DNA from: Terriglobia bacterium | Lineage (GTDB): Bacteria > Acidobacteriota > Terriglobia > JAIQFV01 | DNA: 64,000 nucleotides | Assembly (NCBI GenBank): GCA_028716525.1 | Contig: JAQUPQ010000007.1 | Location: 64,196-128,195, forward strand | Reading direction: 5' to 3' | Part shown: positions 29,423 to 56,454 of the stretch, one piece after another | Position numbering within the stretch: position 1 is the stretch's first letter | How the letters are laid out: every line of letters starts with the position of its first letter | Position numbers and translations under genes: made by a program | Notes under the pieces: model-generated | What the model saw: only the letters and a program-made list of their open reading frames with translations | What the model was told of the DNA's origin: nothing | Databases searched by the model: none

Positions 29423-29497
29423 GTGAGCACTTTTGATCAAGCTGGTGAGCAGTACTGGGCTGACACGCAAATTCCCCTGGGGTATAAGAACTGTACC
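29423..29497 (+). promoter_or_regulatory. copy 1 of the conserved ~75-bp promoter module (boxes TGAGCAcTTTTGATCAA / GTGAGCAGTACTGGGC, -35 TGACACGC, -10 GGGTATAAGA)
   Basis: GTGAGCACTTTTGATCAAGCTGGTGAGCAGTACTGGGCTGACACGCAAATTCCCCTGGGGTATAAGAACTGTACC. Lies ~140 nt upstream of the Gln-rich repeat protein gene. Confidence 0.7.
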
Positions 29498-29639
29498 CCG
29501 AGATGCAGCCAGGACCCGGTGGGAGTCGGATGGCAAAAGACAAAGTGCTTATCTTTTCCATTCTCTCTACTGGGATCGTCGTGGCCTCTCTTTTGGGGTT
29601 ACATCCCATGGAACGACCGCATATCTAAGGAGGTGTGCA

Positions 29640-31217
29640 GTGAATCTCAATATCTTGAACCGAATGGTGGTGGCTGTCGTAATCAGCACGGTGTCGTTGG
29701 TGGGATGGACCATACCGACCAACGCCCAGCAACCACCGCAGGAAGAGCAACAACCGCAGAAAGACCAGAAACAGCAGAAAGACAAAAATAAGGAGCAACC
29801 GCCGGCGCAGCAACAACCGCGCGGCCAACAGCAGCCCCAGCAAGATCAAAGCAAACAACCACACCAACAACCTGCTGAACGGCAACAGCAACCGGACCAG
29901 AACAAACAGCAGCAAGAGCAAGATAAACAGCAGCAAAAGGCCCGGCAGCAGGATCAGCAGAATAAACAGCAGGAACAACGGATTCAGCAGCAACAACAGC
30001 GGGTCCAACAGCAGCAACAGCAGGATCAGCAGAACAAACAGCAACAGCAGCAACAACAACAGCAACAGCGCGTTCAGCAGCAGGATCAGCAGAACAAACA
30101 GCAGGAACAACGGATTCAGCAGCAGCAACAGCGGGTGCAACAGCAGCAACAACAACAGCGCGTTCAGCAGCAGGATCAGCAGAACAAACAGCAGGAACAA
30201 CGGATTCAGCAGCAGCAACAGCGGGTGCAACAGCAGCAACAACAACAGCAACAGCAAAAGGACCAGCAGAATAGAGAGCAGCAACAACGCGTTCAGCAGC
30301 AACAGGATCAGCAGAATAGACAGCAACAGCAGCGCGTCCAGCAGCAACAACAACAGCAGCAGCAAAAGGACCAGCAGAATAGAGAGCAGCAACAGCGCGT
30401 CCAGCAGCAACAGGATCAGCAGAATAAACAGCAACAGCAGCGCGTCCAACAGCAACAACAACAGCAGCAGCAAAAGGACCAGCAGAATAGAGAGCAGCAA
30501 CAACGCGTTCAGCAGCAACAGCAGCAGCAGGCTAAGCAACAACAATGGCAGCGGGACCAAAATTGGCAACAGCGCGTACAGCAACAACAACAGCAAGACC
30601 AGAATCAGCAGCAAGCACGCCTCTCGCAACAGCGTCAACAGCAGCTTATTACGGAGCAACAGCAGCGTCTCACTCAGTACCGGCAAAATTTAGATCAGCA
30701 GCAGAGTGTCTGGCAGCGGCAAACATCAAATCTTCAGCGACAAGGGCGCACGGCTCAATACCGTTTTCAGCAGCAATATTGGGACAACGTACGCCAGCAG
30801 CGATTTCGTCTCAATGATCGCCACGATTACGACAATGATCCATACTTCTATACGGCTTGGAACTATCGTTACAAGCGGGGCAACCGCTACTACGAGACGA
30901 ATCAATACGGGGCCAATTTGCTTCGGGAGGCCGTGAGCTACGGTTATGAGCAAGGCTTCCTGGCCGGACAGGCAGACCGGCAGGATCGCTGGCGTTATAA
31001 CTACCAGGCCTCCTATGCCTATCAAGACGCGAACTACGGCTATGACGGTTTTTATGTAGCCCAGGATGAATACAACTATTACTTTCGGCAGGGTTTCCGT
31101 CGCGGCTATGAAGATGGCTACTACAGCCGCTATCGATACGGCAGCTATTCGAGCGGGAAGTACACAATCCTTGGCGCCATTGTGGGGTCAATCCTCGATA
31201 TGCAAGCGCTTCGCTAA
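29640..31217 (+). CDS. secreted Gln-rich tandem-repeat protein with Tyr/Arg/Asp-rich C-terminal domain
   Basis: GTG start after TAAGGAGG. Signal peptide MVVAVVISTVSLVGWTIPTNAQQ. About 380 aa of QQDQQNKQQEQRIQQQQQRVQQQQQQ-type repeats. C-terminal …YGYEQGFLAGQADRQDRWRYNYQASYAYQDANYGYDGFY… ends in hydrophobic TILGAIVGSIL. Confidence 0.7.
   Translation: MNLNILNRMVVAVVISTVSLVGWTIPTNAQQPPQEEQQPQKDQKQQKDKNKEQPPAQQQPRGQQQPQQDQSKQPHQQPAERQQQPDQNKQQQEQDKQQQKARQQDQQNKQQEQRIQQQQQRVQQQQQQDQQNKQQQQQQQQQQRVQQQDQQNKQQEQRIQQQQQRVQQQQQQQRVQQQDQQNKQQEQRIQQQQQRVQQQQQQQQQQKDQQNREQQQRVQQQQDQQNRQQQQRVQQQQQQQQQKDQQNREQQQRVQQQQDQQNKQQQQRVQQQQQQQQQKDQQNREQQQRVQQQQQQQAKQQQWQRDQNWQQRVQQQQQQDQNQQQARLSQQRQQQLITEQQQRLTQYRQNLDQQQSVWQRQTSNLQRQGRTAQYRFQQQYWDNVRQQRFRLNDRHDYDNDPYFYTAWNYRYKRGNRYYETNQYGANLLREAVSYGYEQGFLAGQADRQDRWRYNYQASYAYQDANYGYDGFYVAQDEYNYYFRQGFRRGYEDGYYSRYRYGSYSSGKYTILGAIVGSILDMQALR
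29945..30540 (+). repeat. near-perfect tandem DNA repeats (about three 90-nt units followed by about three 108-nt units) inside the Gln-rich gene
   Basis: Identical blocks occur at 30071 and 30161 (cgttcagcagcaggatcagcagaacaaacagcaggaacaacggattcagcagcagcaacagcgggtgcaacag…). Further blocks sit at 30254, 30362 and 30470 (agcaaaaggaccagcagaatagagagcagcaaca…). Confidence 0.8.
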
Positions 31218-35425: not shown

Positions 35426-36340
35426 ATGGGCAAGACGATGAGGGGTTTCCTTCTTGTGCTGCTTTTCCTGTTCAGTGGCAGTTCCGTTCTTAAAGCGCAG
35501 ATGGACCCCTATTTCACTGCTATCAATTATCCTGTTCCGCAGGACACGTTGATGGTGATGCTGCTGTCGGACTTCCAGTCCGCGCGATCCAGCAACGATT
35601 TCTTCACCGGCATGGGTATGGTGCAGTATGGGCTCACACCCCGCTGGACGGTGGGGTTTATGGCGGAGGGGCAGAAAATCTTCGGTTTGCCTGCCACCTA
35701 CGGGGGGCTGCGGATCAATAGTTACTTTCGCGTTTTTCCAAACGACCACCTACTGAACTTCACCCTGTATGGCGAGTACGAAGGCCTAAATGGGGCGGCG
35801 TTGTACAAAATGGAGGTTGCCGGATTCGGCGGCGAAGACTTGAATGAGCCGCTGGCGCTGGCACGGCGTACGCCCGTCCGCACTTTCGAGCAACGAGCCA
35901 TCATGTATCATGATTGGGGTCGGGTTAACCTCACCTTCAATTTCATCAATGAGACTGGGCTGGAAAGCGGCGAGAACGACTTCGGCTATGCTTGGGGAGT
36001 GTTTCGGCAGGCTGCATCTATGGCCATGGAGACAGACAAAGACATGGCCGGAATGGGGGGAATGCCGGAAAAGAAAGCGCCTCCGGTGTTTTCATTTCAA
36101 CGGCTGGGCTATGGGCTCGAGATGATAGGGGCGCTCGGCAACACGGATCAATTCGGCTTCGACTGGCAACGTCAGCAGCACTATGTGGGTCCTGTCTTCA
36201 GCTATTCCGTATCGAAACACTGGACCGTTCGCGTCGAGCCGGCATTCGGACTCTCCAGCGTAAGCGATCCGTTTGCGCTGCGAATGGGGGTCGGATATTC
36301 GATCGATCACCTTCTGCATCGCCGATCACCGGCTCCGTGA
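35426..36340 (+). CDS. putative outer-membrane beta-barrel protein (hypothetical)
   Basis: Signal peptide MRGFLLVLLFLFSGSSVLKAQ. Alternating beta-strand-like pattern with aromatic-rich C-terminus. No family recognised. Confidence 0.4.
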   Translation: MGKTMRGFLLVLLFLFSGSSVLKAQMDPYFTAINYPVPQDTLMVMLLSDFQSARSSNDFFTGMGMVQYGLTPRWTVGFMAEGQKIFGLPATYGGLRINSYFRVFPNDHLLNFTLYGEYEGLNGAALYKMEVAGFGGEDLNEPLALARRTPVRTFEQRAIMYHDWGRVNLTFNFINETGLESGENDFGYAWGVFRQAASMAMETDKDMAGMGGMPEKKAPPVFSFQRLGYGLEMIGALGNTDQFGFDWQRQQHYVGPVFSYSVSKHWTVRVEPAFGLSSVSDPFALRMGVGYSIDHLLHRRSPAP

Positions 36341-36477
36341 AAGACGATGCGGGTTTGGGCTCTGTCCCGGCGGAGTTGAAACGAGCCGTGGTTGTCACAC
36401 TAGCACTGGTCCGGTTTTTATCAGCCATCAATGGGAGAACACCTGGGAGATGAAACAACAACAAAGGAGATGAGGCC

Positions 36478-36912
36478 ATGACAACGACAAAACTGCTGTT
36501 CATATCGATTTTCGCATTATTGCTAACGAGCTTTTACGGTGCGCCACTGCAAGCCCAAAACGCCATGCAAAGTTCCGGCATGGACATGAAGAACATGAAA
36601 TCAGAGATGGAGCAGATGCGTGCGCAGATGGAACAGATACAGACCCTGATGAAGGACACCATGGCCAAAATGGCGGCCGCCGATGCCGCCATGAAGAGCC
36701 ACATGGAAACGGAACAGGCCAGCATGAAGAGTCAGATGGAACTGCAGCAGGCCATGATTAACCATCTACAAACTATGACGGATCACATGCAGACTCACAT
36801 GCAGATGATGACTGACCGCATGGCCATGAAGCCGGATCCCATGGATGTTCACAAGAAAAGCGGGGCGACGAAGCAGAAAGATAAAAAGATGATGGATGAT
36901 CAGAAGAAATGA
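36478..36912 (+). CDS. secreted methionine-rich coiled-coil-like protein (MrpX-like candidate oxidant sink or metal binder)
   Basis: Signal peptide. About 25 Met in 144 aa with 3/4-residue spacing (MDMKNMKSEMEQMRAQMEQIQTLMKDTMAKM…HMQTHMQMMTDRMAM). Lys-rich tail. Confidence 0.6.
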   Translation: MTTTKLLFISIFALLLTSFYGAPLQAQNAMQSSGMDMKNMKSEMEQMRAQMEQIQTLMKDTMAKMAAADAAMKSHMETEQASMKSQMELQQAMINHLQTMTDHMQTHMQMMTDRMAMKPDPMDVHKKSGATKQKDKKMMDDQKK

Positions 36913-37041
36913 GTCTGACAGAGTCCCGTATTCTTCAAGCACACTTTTGCGGGTCGCAAACAGAGCAGAAGACGACAGGGCTGTGCCACCCGACGGGGAT
37001 TTTGCCGGCCCCCCCGATAAGTTCAGCTCTCATCAATTGGC

Positions 37042-37676: not shown

Positions 37677-37838
37677 AAAAACATCAGCCGGCGACGGACG
37701 GAACAGCCCGTATGTTCGTCGGAAGCCTTTACAAGATTCACCGATGTTGCTTCGCTTGGACTTCTTCAATCACGGAGTATGCCTGTGTCGCTCATCGTGA
37801 AATTGAACTCTAAGCTCATTAGCGTCGAGGCAACCATG

Positions 37839-38450
37839 AGAATCATACTTAGATCGGCGGTATTCCCGGCTGCCTTGTTCCTGATGCTGGCCGGTTGCAG
37901 CGGAAAACCATCCGACGAGAGTTCGAAGAGTGAAAGCGCCAAGCCTCAGGCCACGCAGGCGGAAACCCAATCGACATCTCAGGGCACCTCGCCCGCCGCG
38001 AAAAAGGCGCCCGAGGAGTCCAAAGCGGTGACTCCTGAGCCGCTCCAGGGCCGCCCTTCGAAGGCTCTCCCGGTGCCGTCCGAAGAGAAATCCAAGACGG
38101 TGTCTGCCGAGCCGAAGAAGTTGCCTACTCAGGACGTCTTCATGTTGAGAGATTCACCACTCGGCGTAGTGAGGTTCGAGCACAAGCTTCACCAGGAACG
38201 GGCAGCACAGAAGTGCGAGACGTGCCATCATGCGTCCCGGGCGGAAAAGCCTGCCAAGGCGGCCCAGCAAAACTGCTTTGACTGCCACACGAAACCCCCT
38301 CAGCCGGGGATGAAAACGGGACGGCAGGCAGCGTTCCACAATCCCACGGCCCAGGCCGGCACCTGCATCGAATGCCACAGGATGCAAAACGCCCAGGGCA
38401 AAAAGGCGCCGACGAAGTGCATGGAATGCCACAAGAAGGAGAACACCTAG
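37839..38450 (+). CDS. tetraheme cytochrome c3-like lipoprotein
   Basis: Lipobox LAGC after MRIILRSAVFPAALFLM. Low-complexity S/E/K/A/P linker. Four CxxCH motifs (CETCH, CFDCH, CIECH, CMECH) within ~80 aa. Confidence 0.7.
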   Translation, partial: RIILRSAVFPAALFLMLAGCSGKPSDESSKSESAKPQATQAETQSTSQGTSPAAKKAPEESKAVTPEPLQGRPSKALPVPSEEKSKTVSAEPKKLPTQDVFMLRDSPLGVVRFEHKLHQERAAQKCETCHHASRAEKPAKAAQQNCFDCHTKPPQPGMKTGRQAAFHNPTAQAGTCIECHRMQNAQGKKAPTKCMECHKKENT

Positions 38451-38579
38451 TTCTATGTTTGATTGCTGTACCCTCGTCCGGAAAGATGTGGCTTTTCTGA
38501 GGGAGGCGTTGGGAAGTTGTCAAAACCAGATTACTCTTGCGATGACCGGTCGGTTTTGTGCAAGCATACGGAGGTTGTT

Positions 38580-39239
38580 ATGGCCCATCAGAAAAGTCAG
38601 CCGGCCGATTGGTCAGTCTTCTTGGCTGGGTTCCCCAGCGAGAAAACCGCTATCCAGTACGGCGCGAACCGCACGATCTTCTCGGAAGGAGAACCCGCGA
38701 ATTCCGTCTTTTACCTTCGAAAAGGCAAGGTGGATCTCGGCGTGACATCGAAGCATGGAAAAGCAGCGATCCTCGCCCATGTGGGCCCCGGTGAGTTCTT
38801 CGGCGAAGGATGTCTCGCCGGCCAGCGATTGCGCATCGCCACGGCTACCACGATGACCCATTGCAAGCTGGTCAGGATTGCCAAGCCGCTGATGGCGCGC
38901 CTGCTCCACGAACAACACGGTTTCTCGGAATTGTTCCTCACGCATCTGCTTTCACGCAACATCCGATCCAAAGTGGATCTCGTCGATCAGCTCTTCAACT
39001 CCACCCAGAAGCGTCTGGCTCGGACTCTCTTGCTGCTGGCTCATTTTGGCAAGGAGAGCCGGGCCGAAAGTGTACATCCCAGAATCAATCAGGAAGACCT
39101 GGCGCGAATGGTCGGCATATCTCGGTTGCGGATCAGTAATTTCATGAAGAAGTTCAAGAAGCTGGGCTATGTCGATTACACCGGCAGCGGTGGGTTGACG
39201 GTTCGTAGTGGCCTTTTGAGCGTGATCCTGCACGACTAG
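38580..39239 (+). CDS. Crp/Fnr family transcriptional regulator (paralog A)
   Basis: cNMP-binding-like beta-roll (…FYLRKGKVDLGVTSKHGKAAILAHVGPGEFFGEGCLAG…). C-terminal HTH EDLARMVGISRLRISNFMKKFKKLGYVDY. No N-terminal Cys cluster. Confidence 0.8.
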   Translation: MAHQKSQPADWSVFLAGFPSEKTAIQYGANRTIFSEGEPANSVFYLRKGKVDLGVTSKHGKAAILAHVGPGEFFGEGCLAGQRLRIATATTMTHCKLVRIAKPLMARLLHEQHGFSELFLTHLLSRNIRSKVDLVDQLFNSTQKRLARTLLLLAHFGKESRAESVHPRINQEDLARMVGISRLRISNFMKKFKKLGYVDYTGSGGLTVRSGLLSVILHD

Positions 39240-42112: not shown

Positions 42113-42268
42113 ATGTCAAAAACGAAAAAACCGAAAACTCATTTTCAGCAGGTTCCGCTGGAGATAGTCAAAGTTATCGCTGAACAAGAAATTCCGGACG
42201 ATAAATTGATGGGAAACAACGTGACCGTGAAACCTCCTCAAAAGAGGAAGAGCAGAAGGCTGTCATGA
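42113..42268 (+). CDS. small basic hypothetical protein (possible leader ORF)
   Basis: MSKTKKPKTHFQQVPLEIVKVIAEQEIPDDKLMGNNVTVKPPQKRKSRRLS. Its stop overlaps the start of the Crp/Fnr gene. Confidence 0.25.
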   Translation: MSKTKKPKTHFQQVPLEIVKVIAEQEIPDDKLMGNNVTVKPPQKRKSRRLS

Positions 42269-43026
42269 TGAGCAAACGAATTTCTATCGGAAGATCCTCC
42301 TTCAGCAAGCAGGGGGATGCTGTTACGGCGCGCAACAAAAAAAGGAAACCCGAGGTTATCACGGCAAATCAGAAGAACCAGTCTGTCGATTGGGAAGCCC
42401 TCCTTGCTGGAATCAACGGAGGGAAAACCGTGCTTGAATACACCGCAAACCGCATCATCTACCGGCAGGGAGATCCTGCGGATTCCGTTTTTTATCTCCG
42501 ACGAGGCAAGGTGAAGCTGACGGTGACATCCCAGGAGGGCAAGGAAGCGATCGTCGCCATTCTGGGCGCCGGTGAGTTCTTCGGCGAGGGATGTCTTGCA
42601 GGCCAACTGTTGCGCGTTTCAACGGTTGTCGCGATGAGCGATTGCTCTTTTGCCCGGATTGAAAAGCCGCGGATGGCGCGCATGCTCCACGAGCAGCACG
42701 ACATTTCGGAATTGTTCGTCACGCACCTGCTTTCACGCAACATCCGCTATGAAGAGGATCTGGTCGACCAGCTTTTCAACTCCAGCGAGAAACGCCTGGC
42801 CCGGATTCTTTTGCTGCTGGCTCATTTTGGCAAGGAAGGCCGATCCGAAGCTGTCGTTCCCAGAATCAATCAGGAAAACTTGGCACAAATGGTGGGCACC
42901 ACGCGTTCGCGGGTCAGTCATTTCATGAACAAGTTCCGAAAGCTTGGCTTTGTCGATTACGACGGCCCTACCGGCGGCGGGTTGATGGTCCATAGTGGTC
43001 TCCTCAGCGTGATCTTGCAAGACTAG
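42265..43026 (+). CDS. Crp/Fnr family transcriptional regulator (paralog B, with Lys/Arg-rich N-terminal extension)
   Basis: Alignable along its whole length with the 38580 gene (shared runs GEFFGEGCLAGQ, SELF(L/V)THLLSRNIR, LLLLAHFGKE, HTH …RSRVSHFMNKFRKLGFVDY). Carries a ~35-aa basic N-extension. Confidence 0.8.
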   Translation: MMSKRISIGRSSFSKQGDAVTARNKKRKPEVITANQKNQSVDWEALLAGINGGKTVLEYTANRIIYRQGDPADSVFYLRRGKVKLTVTSQEGKEAIVAILGAGEFFGEGCLAGQLLRVSTVVAMSDCSFARIEKPRMARMLHEQHDISELFVTHLLSRNIRYEEDLVDQLFNSSEKRLARILLLLAHFGKEGRSEAVVPRINQENLAQMVGTTRSRVSHFMNKFRKLGFVDYDGPTGGGLMVHSGLLSVILQD

Positions 43027-48363: not shown

Positions 48364-50997
48364 GTGGAGATTTCAAAGAAGACCATGGACTCATCCGGAC
48401 ACCCCGCTAACCATCTCCGCAAAAACGGAACGCAGGTTTCCGTTCAACTGATCGAGAAGGCGCGAGCTGATACCCAGACTGTATTGGAGGAGCTTGGATC
48501 ACAACCGAGCGGCCTGAGCCAGGAGGAAGCCGATTCTCGCTTGAAGCAAGTTGGGACCAACGAGATCGCCCGAGAGAAGCGCCAGTCCGGCCTGATGCGC
48601 CTCTTGAGCAACATCAAAAATCCGCTGGTGCTCCTGCTCCTGGCGCTGGGCGTGCTTTCTTATTTAACCGGTGACCTGCGGGCGATGGTGGTCATTTTCG
48701 TGATGGTGGTTCTGGGCGTGGTGTTGCGCTTCTTCCAGGAGATGCGCGCCGATAACGCCGCCGAGAAGCTCAAAGCGATGGTCAGCAACACGGCGACATT
48801 GGTCCGGGACGGCCAGGAGAAAGAAGTATCGCTCAAGATGCTGGTGCCTGGCGATATCATCCGGCTGGCAGCCGGCGACATGGTGCCGGCGGATGTTCGG
48901 GTGCTCTCCACCAAAGACCTGTTCCTGAATCAGGCGGCTCTCACTGGCGAAGCCCTGCCGGTCGAGAAGAAAGCCGCCCCCGCCCCGGCAGACGCGCAAA
49001 ATCCGCTTGACCTGCCCAACATCTGCTTCCTCGGCTCCAACGTGGAGAGTGGATCCGCGACGGCCGTGGTTATCCATACTGGGAACCAAACCTACTTTGG
49101 ATCCCTGGCGGTCAGCATTGTCCGACAGCGCCAACTCACCAGCTTCGACAAGGGCATCAACAAATTCACCTGGATGATGATCTGCTTTATCGCCGTCATG
49201 GTTCCGGCGGTTTTTCTCATCAACGGACTGAGCAAGCACAACTGGCTGGAAGCTTTCCTGTTTGCCATGGCCGTGGCCGTCGGGCTGACCCCCGAGATGC
49301 TGCCCATGATCGTGACCGTGAACCTGGCCAAGGGCGCCCTCGCAATGTCGCGCAAGAAAGTGATCGTCAAACGCCTGAACGCCATCCAGAATTTCGGGGC
49401 GATGGACGTGCTGTGTACCGACAAAACCGGCACCCTGACCCAAGGCAAGATCGTGCTTGAAAAATACCTGGACGCGCGCGGCGATCCAAGCCAGAGGGTG
49501 CTCAACTACGGCTATCTGAATAGCTACCATCATACCGGGCTGAAGAACCTGCTCGACGAGGCGATCCTCGACCATGAGGAATTGGAAGAACGCCTGAAAG
49601 CGAACGAGAAGTACCACAAGATCGACGAAATCCCTTTCGACTTTGTGCGGCGCCGAATGTCGGTGGTGGTGGAAGATGAAACCGGATTAAACACGCTGAT
49701 CTGCAAAGGCGCCGTGGATGAAGTGATGAGCCTGTGCACCCGTGTGGAACTCCCCGGGGATGTGGTTGCGGTTCAGCCCGAACATGACACTAAACGCCGG
49801 AAGATGGTGGACGACCTGAATGCTCAGGGCTTCCGGGTGATCGCCCTGGCGTATAAGGAAATGCCGAATGCCCCGGATGAACCCGTTTACTCCATCCAAG
49901 ATGAATCGGACCTGATCCTGCTGGGTTTCCTGGCCTTCCTCGACCCGCCCAAGGACACCGCGACAGAGGCATTGAAGCAGCTTCGCGGCCTAAACGTGGA
50001 TGTGAAGGTTCTGACCGGCGACAATGAAATCATTACCGCCTATATCTGCAAGGAAGTGGGCATCTCGGTGGAGCATCTTTTGCTCGGCTCGCAAATCGAG
50101 ATGATGAGCGAGGCGGCATTGGCCGAAGCCGTCGGCGCAACGAGCGTCTTTGCCCGTCTGGCCCCGGCTCACAAGGAACACATTATCCATGCGCTCCAAA
50201 GGAAGGGTCACGTGGTGGGATTTATGGGCGACGGAATCAACGACGCCCCGGCCTTGAAAGCCGCCGATGTGGGCATCTCCGTGGACGGCGCGGTGGACAT
50301 CGCCAAGGAGTCCTCCGATATCATCCTGCTGGAAAACAGTCTGCTGGTGCTGGAGCAGGGCGTGCTGGAAGGCCGGCGGGTGTTCGGCAACATTATCAAG
50401 TACATCAAGATGGCGGCCAGCTCGAACTTCGGCAACATGTTCAGCGTCGTGGGGGCGAGCGCCTTCCTTCCCTTCCTGCCCATGCTGCCGATCCAGGTGC
50501 TGACCAACAACCTCCTGTACGACTTTTCGCAGACCACCATCCCCACCGACCAGGTGGATGCGGACTGGCTGATCCGGCCGCGCCAGTGGACGATCGGCAA
50601 GATCATGCACTTCATCCTGTTCATCGGGCCGATCAGCTCGATCTTCGATTACGTGACGTTTTTCATGATGCTCTATGTTTTCAACTGCTGGAATAATCCG
50701 GCCCTGTTTCACACCGGCTGGTTCGTGGAGTCGATCTTCACCCAGACGTTAATCATCCATGTCATTCGCACCAACAAGATTCCCTTTATCGAAAGCCGCG
50801 CGAGTCGCCCGCTGATCCTCACTTCAATTCTCATCGTCGGGGTGGGCGCCTGGCTGACGATTTCGCCACTGGCAAAAACGCTCGGGTTTGTTCCGCTCCC
50901 ACCACTGTACTGGCTGTTTCTCGCCATCATGCTGCTGGGTTATGCGATGCTGACACAGGTGGTAAAGACCTGGTTCATTCGCAGGTTTGGGGAGTGA
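48364..50997 (+). CDS. mgtA: magnesium-translocating P-type ATPase MgtA
   Basis: 877 aa. DKTGTLT phosphorylation motif, TGDN, GDGINDAPAL, 10-TM topology. N-terminal region typical of MgtA/MgtB. Confidence 0.85.
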   Translation: MEISKKTMDSSGHPANHLRKNGTQVSVQLIEKARADTQTVLEELGSQPSGLSQEEADSRLKQVGTNEIAREKRQSGLMRLLSNIKNPLVLLLLALGVLSYLTGDLRAMVVIFVMVVLGVVLRFFQEMRADNAAEKLKAMVSNTATLVRDGQEKEVSLKMLVPGDIIRLAAGDMVPADVRVLSTKDLFLNQAALTGEALPVEKKAAPAPADAQNPLDLPNICFLGSNVESGSATAVVIHTGNQTYFGSLAVSIVRQRQLTSFDKGINKFTWMMICFIAVMVPAVFLINGLSKHNWLEAFLFAMAVAVGLTPEMLPMIVTVNLAKGALAMSRKKVIVKRLNAIQNFGAMDVLCTDKTGTLTQGKIVLEKYLDARGDPSQRVLNYGYLNSYHHTGLKNLLDEAILDHEELEERLKANEKYHKIDEIPFDFVRRRMSVVVEDETGLNTLICKGAVDEVMSLCTRVELPGDVVAVQPEHDTKRRKMVDDLNAQGFRVIALAYKEMPNAPDEPVYSIQDESDLILLGFLAFLDPPKDTATEALKQLRGLNVDVKVLTGDNEIITAYICKEVGISVEHLLLGSQIEMMSEAALAEAVGATSVFARLAPAHKEHIIHALQRKGHVVGFMGDGINDAPALKAADVGISVDGAVDIAKESSDIILLENSLLVLEQGVLEGRRVFGNIIKYIKMAASSNFGNMFSVVGASAFLPFLPMLPIQVLTNNLLYDFSQTTIPTDQVDADWLIRPRQWTIGKIMHFILFIGPISSIFDYVTFFMMLYVFNCWNNPALFHTGWFVESIFTQTLIIHVIRTNKIPFIESRASRPLILTSILIVGVGAWLTISPLAKTLGFVPLPPLYWLFLAIMLLGYAMLTQVVKTWFIRRFGE

Positions 50998-53788: not shown

Positions 53789-54598
53789 CTACTTCTTGTG
53801 GCGCTTTGGTTTTAGGAACACAGCGGCTGCGCGTTCCAGGACGCGGAAGGCGAACGACTCGGTCAGGTAGAGGTAGACCTTATGTTTGTCGTGACCCTCG
53901 TATCCGATCGACAGATCCTGTCCCACGCTGAGCTGAAAGTCGCCCCCGCGATGCGAGAGCAGCACGGCGCCATCGACCTTTGGCGCCAGAACCATCGGCC
54001 CGTCAAGGAAGTGCTCGACGCGCTCACGGATCGGGTAGCCATCCTGCGCGGCCTGGGCCAAACCCGCATAACAGTTCGGTCCAAGCGCCAAGGCATAGGG
54101 TCCATTGATGCCCGCGCGCCGCAGCGTCTCGACGGCGTCCACCACGACGGACGGATAGTCCGCATAATCGTCCGGGATGGCAATGGCCGGATGCAAGGTC
54201 GTAGGGATGATACCCTCAATGCCTCCGGCTTTGAAGCCGTTGAAGATGGCGTTGTCCTCGGCATGCGCTGTCTTCTCCGCGGCACTTACCACCGCTGGAA
54301 GGTCCAGCACAGCGCCGCGCGATGCGTTGTCGAGTTCCATGATTGACAGCTCGAACGGCACTCGCACCTCGATCAAAGGCGCCACCTCGCGCACGCCCCA
54401 CGGCACGCCAAGGTCGCCGTCGGTTCGGATGGTCAGGTGGCCCGTGTTGACCGAGGCATACCTCCACCCGTGCGGGCCGTCGAAATCAACCAGCTTGCGT
54501 CCCGCCAGGTTGAGCTGGAGCACCCGCTTGGCTTCGTCGTCGATTTGCTTCCAGGCTTCGGGCGTAATCGGCGCATGATCGCGCTTCAATAGATCCAT
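53789..54598 (-). CDS. family 1 encapsulin nanocompartment shell protein (Linocin M18-like)
   Basis: MDLLKRDHAPITPEAWKQIDDEAKRVLQLNLAGRKLVDFDGPHGWRYASVNTGHL… is typical of the HK97-fold encapsulin N-terminus. 269 aa. Confidence 0.85.
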   Translation of the reverse strand: MDLLKRDHAPITPEAWKQIDDEAKRVLQLNLAGRKLVDFDGPHGWRYASVNTGHLTIRTDGDLGVPWGVREVAPLIEVRVPFELSIMELDNASRGAVLDLPAVVSAAEKTAHAEDNAIFNGFKAGGIEGIIPTTLHPAIAIPDDYADYPSVVVDAVETLRRAGINGPYALALGPNCYAGLAQAAQDGYPIRERVEHFLDGPMVLAPKVDGAVLLSHRGGDFQLSVGQDLSIGYEGHDKHKVYLYLTESFAFRVLERAAAVFLKPKRHKK

Positions 54599-54601
54599 GT
54601 C

Positions 54602-54964
54602 TCACTTTCCTTTCATGCTGGCGATGCCGAGTGTCTCGGTGGCCACGGGGGCAGGGCCGTCGGTTCCTGCGCCCTTCTCAATTCCAGCGATCGGCTGCTC
54701 GGTGAACAGGTACTTGTGCATCATCTCGTTGAAGTGGTCGCTGTGACGGCGGATCCACTCCATAAGCATCGTGGCGTGCTCAATCTCTTCGTTCTTGTTG
54801 TGCAGCAGCACGTCCTTCAACTGCGGATCGGAACACGCGTCGGCGCGTTGCTGATACCAGTCGATCGCCTCCAGCTCCTCCATCAGGCTGACGATCGCGC
54901 GGTGCATATTGCGCGTGTCCTCGGGCAGGAGATCGAGCGATTCGTGGTACGCGGTACTTGCCAT
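54602..54964 (-). CDS. encapsulated ferritin-like cargo protein (EncFtn) with C-terminal encapsulin targeting peptide
   Basis: Ferritin-like EExxH motifs (…MEELEAIDWYQQRA…NKNEEIEHATMLMEWI…). C-terminal …TETLGIASMKGK matches the SLGIGSLKG-type cargo-loading peptide. It lies 3 nt upstream of the shell gene. Confidence 0.8.
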   Translation of the reverse strand: MASTAYHESLDLLPEDTRNMHRAIVSLMEELEAIDWYQQRADACSDPQLKDVLLHNKNEEIEHATMLMEWIRRHSDHFNEMMHKYLFTEQPIAGIEKGAGTDGPAPVATETLGIASMKGK

Positions 54965-55141
54965 ATGATTATTCCTCTTACGCTTGCCGACGCACCGGGA
55001 CCGGTGCATCGAAGCTATGAATCTCGACCGGTTAGACCGCCTCCAGCGCGAGGTCTTTCTCAAGGCTCTATTCGCTTGGAGGAACGCGTTGCTCATCCCC
55101 CGACACGCGCCTCGCACCAGATCCTCGCGGAGAGCTCGTAA

Positions 55142-55324: not shown

Positions 55325-55966
55325 CTAGCTGGCGTTCTGTAGGGCGAATTCCCAGTTGATCAGCTTGTCAAGCACGGCATTAACATAGTCGGCACGACGA
55401 TTCTGATAATCCAGGTAGTAAGCATGCTCCCACACGTCAATGGTAAGCAGTGGCTTCATGCCCGTTGTCAAAGGGACATCGGCATTGGCGGTCTTGACCA
55501 CCTTGAGGCTACCTCCCTCGAGGACAAGCCAAGCCCAACCGCTCCCGAACTGTGAAACGGAGGCGCCGGCAAACTCCTTCTTGAAGGCGTCGACGCTGCT
55601 GAAGGATTCCTCGATTCTCTGCTTGAGTGCAGCAGGCGGTTCGCCTCCGCCCTTCGGTTTCATGCTTTTCCAATAAAACGTGTGGTTCCAAGTTTGCGCC
55701 GCGTTGTTGAAGATCGCGATTCTTTCCGGCCGTCCGGCGGTACTGGTAATAATCTTTTCCAATGACAGGTCGGCATATTCTGTTCCTGCAACGAGTTTGT
55801 TCAGGTTGTCCACATAGCCTCTGTGATGTTTCCCATAGTGAAAACTAATCGTCTTGGCCGTTATGATTGGTTCAAGTGCGTTTTCGGCATATGGAAGAGG
55901 GGGTAAGACGTGATGCGGCGCTGCTCCATGCACGGTCGAGGAATAGCCCGTGTCTTTCTTGGTCAT
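55325..55966 (-). CDS. Fe/Mn-family superoxide dismutase
   Basis: …[32 protein letters not shown]…[14 protein letters not shown]…[15 protein letters not shown]… Start ATG 55966 preceded by AAGGAG. Confidence 0.85.
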
Positions 55967-56052
55967 ATCGATCTCCTTAGGGTTGGTGGGTGACACATAA
56001 CGCATGGCATCAGGGCTTGCCGCGGTTAGCGGCAATATTCTGCATGTTGTTG

Positions 56053-56454
56053 TTAGCCGCCCTTTTTCTTTTCTTCGTTGTCTTTCTTGCTTTTTCTGTA
56101 TTCCTCCAGAATCTGTTTCAACCACTCGCCACTGCGCAATTCTTTTCCTTCCTTTGTCCTGATCATGTAGGGTTCGCCCGAGAGAATGCTCTTGGTGGCA
56201 GCAAGGCGGATGAAATCTTCCGGTGTCTTGATCCTGTTTTTGAAATACGAATACTTGCTTCTCAAGTGATCCGACGCTCGTTGACCGGTGTAGGATTGGC
56301 CGTTCCGAATAAAGGTACAATCGGATTGGGCAACGAAAGCCAACAGATAAGCAACCGTGTCATCGGTGTCTTTCTGAGGTCTTGTATCTTGAGCAACGGC
56401 CATAGTCGCAGCAAGAACAGTTGTGATGGCTACAATGATTAAGTTTCTGTGCAT
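56053..56454 (-). CDS. DUF5329 family secreted protein
   Basis: Signal [23 protein letters not shown]. …[55 protein letters not shown]… matches the DUF5329 pattern. It lies directly upstream of SOD on the same strand. Confidence 0.55.

Follow-up and report, generated by a model that had tools for sequence, protein, structure and literature searches.

The 64-kb window analysed here (the whole 64,000-nucleotide stretch of contig JAQUPQ010000007.1 from a Terriglobia bacterium) contains a gene for a small, secreted, extremely methionine-rich protein, and the question raised by this locus is what such a protein does in the cell envelope. A sequence-only reading of the window had proposed that the protein either binds Cu(I)/Ag(I) or acts as an MrpX-type methionine sink. 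The genomic context of the homologues favours the first: copper genes are present in at least 27 of 38 homologous loci, whereas the second is disfavoured by the lack of MsrP/MsrQ in 717 kb of sequence. We consider it probable, if well short of certain, that the protein is a periplasmic Cu(I)/Ag(I)-binding accessory, a sponge or a chaperone, of copper-efflux systems. This proposal starts from features of the sequence, a predicted helix, the purifying selection on the gene and the linkage of its homologues to copper genes.

The gene and its methionine stripe

The open reading frame (ORF) is preceded by the Shine-Dalgarno sequence AAGGAG at 36464-36469, 8 nt before the ATG, and encodes a precursor with 26 methionines in 144 amino acids (18%), 23 of which fall within residues 30-122. 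The mature chain (118 residues after cleavage at A26) contains 25 methionines, or 21%; the runner-up ORF of the window reaches only 5.8%. The protein has 5 histidines (3.5%), 24% charged residues and no cysteine and, because of the latter, is predicted not to be a lipoprotein. The putative signal peptide combines K5, a 14-residue hydrophobic core LLFISIFALLLTSF and a small residue at position -1 of the predicted cut between ..APLQA and QN; the 'A-Q' column at this site is conserved among homologues, and the C-terminal ..DDQKK end is kept in most of the close ones (alignment A1). Given 70 clusters of homologues and dN/dS values of 0.09-0.24 against nine orthologues, which indicate purifying selection, this is a genuine gene and not a chance ORF. 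Antisense ORFs over the gene (e.g., 36534..36725 on the minus strand) were rejected as by-products of the repetitive, ATG-rich sequence, given that conservation and dN/dS back the plus-strand frame. The in-frame HMQM duplication is private to the window copy, with columns 107-110 filled in 1 of 64 homologues.

Successive methionines are mainly 3, 4 or 7 residues apart, and the Fourier power of the methionine indicator over residues 34-118 is maximal at a period of 3.50-3.55; in 20,000 shuffles, this power was never matched. M..M, M...M and M..H pairs account for most of the motif counts, and there are 20 Met/His pairs at i+3 or i+4. The AlphaFold2 model based on the family alignment consists of one unbroken helix, residues 37-116, with a predicted local distance difference test score (pLDDT) of about 93, with a flexible linker on its N-terminal side and, on the other, a Lys-rich tail predicted to be disordered (pLDDT <55); neither Gly nor Pro occurs between residues 35 and 118. 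The heptad (3.5-residue) periodicity that is characteristic of coiled coils extends over this long helix. The sequence-only reading, which described a 144-aa product with a signal peptide and some 25 methionines at 3/4-residue spacing over about 90 residues, forming a Met-lined heptad pattern on a helix, is borne out by these results. The methionines of the stripe are also conserved: the Met columns from 51 to 87 hold methionine in 90% or more of 64 homologues, even though a single mutation would suffice to give Ile, Leu or Val.

Copper genes around the homologues

Copper genes were sought in 38 distinct homologous loci by tblastn with proteins from Pfam-annotated loci. A YHS domain protein, P1B-type ATPase, CusA/B or multicopper oxidase is encoded within 3 kb of the methionine-rich gene in 22 loci and within 10 kb in 25, a number that rises to 30 when DUF302 and the 304-aa partner protein described below are counted in. 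Two loci that are not among the 25 are also positive, L016 with a Tat-exported multicopper oxidase and L026 with an HMBD fragment, which brings the number of loci with copper genes within 10 kb to at least 27, often in the same operon.

Several neighborhoods are of particular interest. In L013, the gene order is YHS, a 308-aa protein that is 81% identical to the product of window ORF 35426..36340, the methionine-rich gene, an unrelated gene, and CusC-CusB-CusA. In L010, the methionine-rich gene is followed by a 33-aa ORF, DUF302, a P-type ATPase with a CPH motif, DUF5666, cytochrome c, OEP and a multicopper oxidase; in L014, the closest long relative, it is followed by the 33-aa peptide, DUF302 and then the C-terminus of a CPH-motif P-type ATPase. 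YHS and heavy-metal ATPase genes adjoin it in L002, L003, L005 and L009, with or without a resistance-nodulation-division (RND) pump of the CusAB/CzcB type, and in a Rhodanobacteraceae genome (L028) it travels with YHS and a CPC ATPase. The neighboring ATPases carry either a CPC motif, together with an HMBD, or a CPH motif, together with a His-rich N-terminus; by the established classification these motifs denote copper-type P1B pumps, with the proviso that the CPC class alone cannot exclude Zn/Cd.

No neighbors are more constant than a 33-aa His/Met/Trp peptide and the YHS protein. The gene for the latter shares the strand of the methionine-rich gene in at least 11 loci, at a distance of 300-500 bp, and lies upstream of it in some and downstream in others. 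Because the order varies between loci, the linkage to YHS has survived rearrangement. Genes for extracytoplasmic function (ECF) sigma factors and zf-HC2 anti-sigma factors are found near some cassettes (L014:7873-8760 and L003:11218-13454, both on the minus strand) and could regulate the module; those of L014 are divergent from the 304-aa gene.

Family and distribution

The 70 clusters of homologues were recovered with E values down to 1e-80. When 1.84 billion representative proteins were searched exhaustively with the family profile, 64 matches were obtained and no link to a larger or named family emerged; many of the matches are fragments, and one, an 879-aa protein with a repetitive sequence, probably matches by composition. 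A scan of the GTDB species genomes identifies 32 loci, all in metagenome-assembled genomes (MAGs). Thirty of these MAGs belong to Acidobacteriota (including Acidobacteriaceae, Bryobacterales, Korobacteraceae and Sulfotelmatobacter); of the remaining two, one is from Rhodanobacteraceae and the other from Nitrospirota. The family is, accordingly, small, without a name and almost confined to Acidobacteriota MAGs; no paper describing it was found in the literature.

Pfam and NCBIfam scans of the protein return only chance coiled-coil-like matches below the cut-off (E >0.001). The family profile has no match in the PDB, and a Foldseek search with the model likewise finds nothing, a single helix being uninformative for fold searches. 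There is no profile match to CopM/DUF305, CusF, CpxP/Spy (LTXXQ), Metal_resist or the alanine zipper of Lpp/OprI, and no lipobox cysteine. The nearly invariant core of the family is LMKDxMAKMAAADAAMK-S-H-M-E-T-EQASMKSQMELQ. A distant subfamily keeps the AADAAMK[ST]HM[DE]T part of this core and has I, L or V in place of many methionines of the stripe. Because the core is kept with fewer methionines, the scaffold of the family appears to be an amphipathic or coiled-coil helix, and the extreme methionine enrichment is a trait of the branch to which the window gene belongs.

Partner proteins

The protein encoded upstream of the methionine-rich gene, a 304-aa protein with a signal peptide (hereafter OMP304), has orthologues that are 81-88% identical directly upstream of the gene in L013, L014, L017, L029 and L040, and downstream of it in L041; in about 30 of the 38 loci, the methionine-rich gene occurs without it. 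OMP304 belongs to a larger group with more than 649 clusters of homologues (e.g., P0163, P0130, P0108, P0122 and L049:8001-9524), for which no Pfam family and no PDB match by profile search were identified. OMP304 is probably a beta-rich outer-membrane protein; its AlphaFold2 model is poor (pLDDT 36) but contains mostly beta hairpins. A comparison of alignment A2 with PcoB using hhalign gives a probability of 1.1%, that is, no detectable homology, and there is no Pfam CopB match. Long forms of OMP304 contain about 200 aa of N-terminal (MxNMPGMxMP)n repeats, the typical Cu(I) 'Mets' motif, and the gene for one such form adjoins DUF302, two cation diffusion facilitator (CDF) transporters and an ArsR regulator.

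In L050, on a 2.7-Mb contig, the OMP304 homologue is followed by a different methionine-rich secreted protein of 145 aa (…GMMKMEDGMMGHMMEHMQAGKDSMAMCPMMKQMGGMKH; L050:9151-9588) and then by a 40-aa membrane peptide (L050:9636-9758). The hhalign comparison of the 145-aa protein with the family is weak (E 0.0016, probability 16%). Because a different methionine-rich protein takes this place, the slot after OMP304 is reserved for methionine-rich periplasmic proteins, and the L050 pair is a positional analogue of the module.

In about 25 loci, an ORF of 33-37 aa is located 40-110 bp downstream of the methionine-rich gene. The consensus of these mini-proteins, (M/V)HGYGMxGWNxGWMWMFGVVLIIALALIFRARK, consists of a His/Met/Trp head (MHGYGMxGWNxGWMWM), one transmembrane helix and a basic C-terminus, and corresponds to no Pfam family. 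The head presumably resembles the His/Met/Trp Cu(I) site of CusF, and the peptide is a candidate membrane-anchored Cu(I) site. Both partner proteins contain motifs that are classic for Cu(I) ligands, OMP304 in the Mets repeats of its long forms and the 33-aa peptide in its head.

The locus in the window

Colinearity of the window with L010, L014 and L017 starts at the end of OMP304, spans the 137-nt intergenic region and the methionine-rich gene, and ends about 28 nt past the stop codon (~36940), where the sequences diverge. Elsewhere, the 33-aa membrane peptide, DUF302 and the copper ATPase follow beyond the 3' flank; all three are missing in the window, and a search of the window for a remnant of the 33-aa peptide found none. 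Because of this loss of synteny some 30 bp beyond the stop codon, the window copy, itself intact, appears to be a detached remnant of the cassette that kept OMP304 and lost the 33-aa peptide and the pump genes by rearrangement at that point.

In the window, L010, L015, L018, L020 and L022, some 80-137 nt upstream of the methionine-rich gene are conserved at the DNA level, and this conservation extends to loci without the 304-aa gene. This region, possibly a promoter or operator, includes a GCTGAT-N9-ATCAGC dyad in many loci and GCCGAT…ATCGGC in L002, an element that is not consistently kept; the window has a local duplication of the Shine-Dalgarno/start segment. The possibility of a regulatory RNA in the 5' region was rejected, as RNAalifold finds no structure and there is no credible Rfam match, only two sub-threshold chance matches, one of them to a eukaryotic long noncoding RNA model over 36408-36473. 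Promoter, terminator and inverted-repeat scans around the gene are uninformative. The 74-aa membrane ORF upstream of OMP304 has no counterpart in other loci.

Table 1. Coordinates of the methionine-rich gene, its parts and flanks, partner genes and the distant SOD, EncFtn and encapsulin genes (window positions unless a locus is named)
Feature	Position	Strand	Basis
Coding sequence, methionine-rich secreted protein, 144 aa	36478..36912 (including stop codon)	+	ORF list, sequence, homologues, dN/dS
Predicted Sec signal peptide (aa 1-26, cut after ..PLQA)	36478..36555	+	read from sequence
Predicted single long amphipathic helix (aa 37-116) with Met stripe and conserved core AADAAMK-S-H-M-E-T	36586..36825	+	AlphaFold2, alignment
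Predicted disordered Lys-rich C-terminal tail MKPDPMDVHKKSGATKQKDKKMMDDQKK	36826..36909	+	pLDDT below 55; alignment A1
12-nt in-frame tandem duplication CACATGCAGACT / CACATGCAGATG, adds HMQM	36784..36807	+	sequence; homologue columns
Conserved intergenic/5' region, 137 nt, including Shine-Dalgarno	36341..36477	+	DNA alignments
Last ~28 nt of conserved 3' flank	36913..36940	+	DNA alignment A6
OMP304, 304-aa signal-peptide protein with Met-rich loop MAMETDKDMAGMGGMPEKK, probably beta-rich outer-membrane protein	35426..36340	+	orthologue synteny, AlphaFold2
Mini-protein, 33-37 aa	L010:10466-10567, L014:10472-10573, L002:10523-10636 and ~22 other loci
Fe/Mn superoxide dismutase (SOD)	55325..56320	-
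Encapsulated ferritin (EncFtn)	54602..55117	-
Encapsulin	53789..54598	-

The neighbors of the gene in the window include general-stress-type genes (CsbD, Ysc84, DUF3309 and YflT/ActD-like), a c3-type cytochrome and Crp/Fnr regulators. The sequence-only reading had placed the gene in an 'island' with SOD and encapsulated ferritin and had taken this location as a pointer to an oxidative-stress role. The genes do exist; however, the SOD, EncFtn and encapsulin genes are 17-19 kb away, behind about 16 unrelated genes, so that the description is only loosely true, and the pointer fails, given this distance and the absence of a Fe/Mn-SOD motif from the homologous loci. As an explanation of the gene, the SOD/EncFtn island was therefore rejected.

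Other genes of the window show features of their own. The segment 53789..56320 on the minus strand resembles a typical family-1 encapsulin operon accompanied by a SOD gene; the SOD domain starts only at aa 136 of its ORF, so that the true start is likely to be inside, and the EncFtn C-terminus, …TLGIASMKGK, resembles a targeting tail. The 594-aa product of ORF 29433..31217 (+) consists of an extremely Gln-rich repeat (…QQDQQNKQQEQRIQQQQQRVQQQ…) and, C-terminal to it, a domain of some 150 aa that is rich in Tyr, Arg, Gly and Asp. A multihaem lipoprotein of the c3/c7 type is encoded at 37779..38450, and two Crp/Fnr-type paralogues (cNMP_binding and HTH_Crp_2) at 38463..39239 (+) and 42265..43026 (+), 3 kb apart, flank small unnamed ORFs.

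Weighing the explanations

Several observations weigh against a copper accessory. No copper gene was detected in the 64-kb window itself, and the sole P-type ATPase of the window (48364..50997) is of the Cation_ATPase_N/C kind, not of the heavy-metal type. Eight of the 38 loci, some of them truncated, lack a copper gene. The protein has only 5 histidines, compared to 10 in SilE and PcoE. The methionine columns are conserved no better than other hydrophobic columns (0.83 vs 0.80). Moreover, the methionine sites coincide with the hydrophobic heptad sites with half of the replacements being I, L or V, and in the distant subfamily (P0206, P0209, P0214, P0219) the scaffold persists although Met makes up just 6-9% of the residues. 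For the latter two reasons, the methionines could be partly structural.

An alternative that we regard as improbable is that the protein supports the 304-aa envelope protein structurally, as a coiled coil or adaptor that would form a stalk, plug or tether in the periplasm and in which methionine provides a flexible hydrophobic core without direct metal binding. The heptad periodicity over an unbroken 80-residue helix, the tight pairing with the 304-aa protein in 6-7 loci, the scaffold of the distant subfamily and the conserved Lys-rich C-terminal tail ending in ..QKK are all compatible with such a role. It is difficult to reconcile, however, with the many loci that carry the gene without its supposed partner, with the persistence of methionine at the core sites in at least 90% of close homologues, and with the identity of the most constant neighbors, which are the 33-aa peptide and YHS rather than the 304-aa protein. 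Still less probable, and in our view rather far-fetched, is a periplasmic holdase chaperone that would shield copper-damaged envelope proteins with a flexible 'methionine bristle' surface, in the manner of Spy/CpxP or the SRP54 M domain. This idea fits the amphipathic helix, whose hydrophobic face is rich in methionine, and the copper-stress gene context, and Spy is copper-inducible in E. coli, but the protein matches neither the CpxP/Spy (LTXXQ) nor the Metal_resist family, there is no structural match, and no neighbors of the Deg/Skp/SurA type were seen.

The second function offered by the sequence-only reading, a sacrificial sink in which periplasmic methionine is oxidized by hypochlorous acid or reactive oxygen species and re-reduced by methionine sulfoxide reductase, is about as unlikely as the structural adaptor. 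The composition is indeed reminiscent of MrpX, with its approximately 20% Met, signal peptide and small size (PMC4436054); general-stress genes (CsbD, Ysc84, DUF3309, YflT/ActD-like) surround the gene in the window, L010 and L042, and SOD and EncFtn are encoded in the same 64 kb. These two, however, are distant from the gene and absent from all homologous loci, the fraction of charged residues is 24% compared to 44% in MrpX, and the defining yedYZ-mrpX operon is absent. A tblastn search with E. coli MsrP/MsrQ (E<=1e-3) finds no match in 717 kb (45 loci and the window), and a motif scan detects one MsrB motif (L026) and no credible MsrA. The genes to which the methionine-rich gene is linked are copper genes. 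Because of this linkage and the lack of MsrP/MsrQ, the copper role is favoured over the oxidant sink. The two roles need not exclude each other since copper stress oxidizes periplasmic methionine (PMC9302797), which makes a dual role possible.

A proposed model of metal binding

Under the copper accessory hypothesis, the precursor would be exported by the Sec pathway and, upon removal of the signal peptide, yield a mature protein of about 118 aa, little more than a single amphipathic helix of 80 residues. On its a/d-type face, this helix would present a continuous stripe of some 20 methionine thioethers and a few histidines (M72/H75/M76, H103/M104 and H107/M108). We infer metal binding, oligomerization and hand-off: Met and His at i/i+3/i+4 could chelate soft monovalent ions within one helix and probably between the helices of an oligomer, the latter being more plausible than binding along a single amphipathic helix of this length. 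The ions would reach the periplasm through the neighboring CopA/CopB-type P-type ATPases or from outside, be buffered by the protein as in a 'sponge', and be passed on, with CusCBA, a multicopper oxidase or the neighboring 304-aa envelope protein as recipients. Sites consisting of Met only or of Met and His are standard periplasmic ligands of Cu(I)/Ag(I), e.g., in CusF, CusB, PcoE and SilE (PMC5008109), and a role in Cu(I) recruitment has been proposed for the Met-rich domain of CueO (PMC11494321).

A bolder version of this scheme, which we consider speculative and rather doubtful, is a parallel 'methionine zipper', a trimer or tetramer with a core of about 20 stacked Met3/Met4 thioether rings, in which Cu(I)/Ag(I) ions would be stored or conducted as a file. 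With the 33-aa and 304-aa proteins, it would make up a hitherto unrecognized envelope route for copper in Acidobacteriota. Such a zipper would do with thioethers what the Csp bundles do with cysteines, and it would likewise correspond to the Met triads of Ctr1. If it is real, a metal-filled methionine zipper would represent a new structural principle for Cu(I) storage or conduction in an oxidizing compartment and a compact scaffold for protein design.

Comparison with known systems

The family most likely represents a lineage-specific, sequence-novel, periplasmic methionine-rich copper accessory protein. This prediction provides a testable name for about 70 clusters of 'hypothetical proteins' and draws attention to the 304-aa family and the 33-aa peptide as additional components, so far without a name, of the copper clusters of Acidobacteriota, which are among the most abundant and least tractable soil phyla.

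The closest functional parallel is the enterobacterial pair PcoE/SilE, from which periplasmic Met-rich Cu/Ag sponges are almost exclusively known. PcoE and SilE, which are thought to act as periplasmic Cu/Ag buffers or 'molecular sponges' (PMC5008109), share with the methionine-rich protein a precursor of 143-144 aa, a Sec signal peptide, the lack of cysteine and Met/His at i+3/i+4 on helices; they are also encoded beside Cu/Ag efflux genes (P-type ATPase, CusCBA-like RND pump, multicopper oxidase), which is the case for the homologues but not for the window's own locus. Nevertheless, hhalign comparison of family alignment A1 gives probabilities of only 0.65% for SilE (the reference is authentic, with a 100% match to an annotated silE gene) and 0.31% for PcoE, and there is no NCBIfam match. 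The compositions differ as well: 18% M and 3.5% H in the methionine-rich protein, compared to 8.5% M and 7% H in SilE and 12.5% M and 6.9% H in PcoE. The SilE motifs (MxxHx5-6HxxM and HxxMxxxHxxM, with about 10 conserved His) are absent, and SilE is intrinsically disordered, with six short predicted helices that form only upon Ag+ binding (PMC5008109), as opposed to the one 80-residue helix predicted here, AlphaFold2 being silent on the apo state. By analogy, it seems rather likely that the methionine-rich protein works like PcoE/SilE without being homologous to them. If so, it is an independent invention of their function, unrelated in sequence and with a far more Met-dense, single-helix architecture.

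MrpX of Azospira suillum, the hypochlorite sink, is similarly small and periplasmic, with about 20% Met and a signal peptide. It contains 20% Met and about 44% charged residues and is induced by reactive chlorine species in a SigF/NrsF-dependent manner (PMC4436054). The methionine-rich gene differs in having no msrPQ/yedYZ operon partner, in encoding fewer charged residues, and in a copper context instead of the SigF/NrsF regulon.

CusF is a small beta-barrel with a single site. The methionine-rich protein, in contrast, is predicted to be all-alpha, has many potential sites, and lacks a Pfam match to either CusF or DUF305, the family of CopM from Synechocystis. CopM and CusF/SilF are periplasmic Cu(I)/Ag(I) binders that use Met/His and are encoded with heavy-metal efflux RND pumps (PMC4335983), features that the methionine-rich protein would share.

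The similarity to the Csp proteins is one of concept, in that heptad-core ligands on a long helix could hold many Cu(I) ions. Csp1 and Csp3 store copper in Cys-lined four-helix bundles, with ligands at core-facing heptad positions of long helices. The methionine-rich protein has no cysteine, offers thioethers rather than thiolates on one predicted helix per chain, carries a Sec rather than a Tat signal, shows no sequence similarity to these proteins, and matches nothing in the PDB by sequence or fold. The Met-rich domain of CueO and the Mets motifs of CopA/PcoA, PcoB/CopB and Ctr1 recruit Cu(I) in oxidizing compartments by means of MxxM/MxxxM thioether clusters (PMC11494321), and the MxNMPGMxMP repeats of the long OMP304 forms belong to the same type. 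In CueO, CopA/PcoA, PcoB/CopB and Ctr1, the motifs are segments of larger enzymes or transporters, whereas here the methionine stripe is the whole protein.

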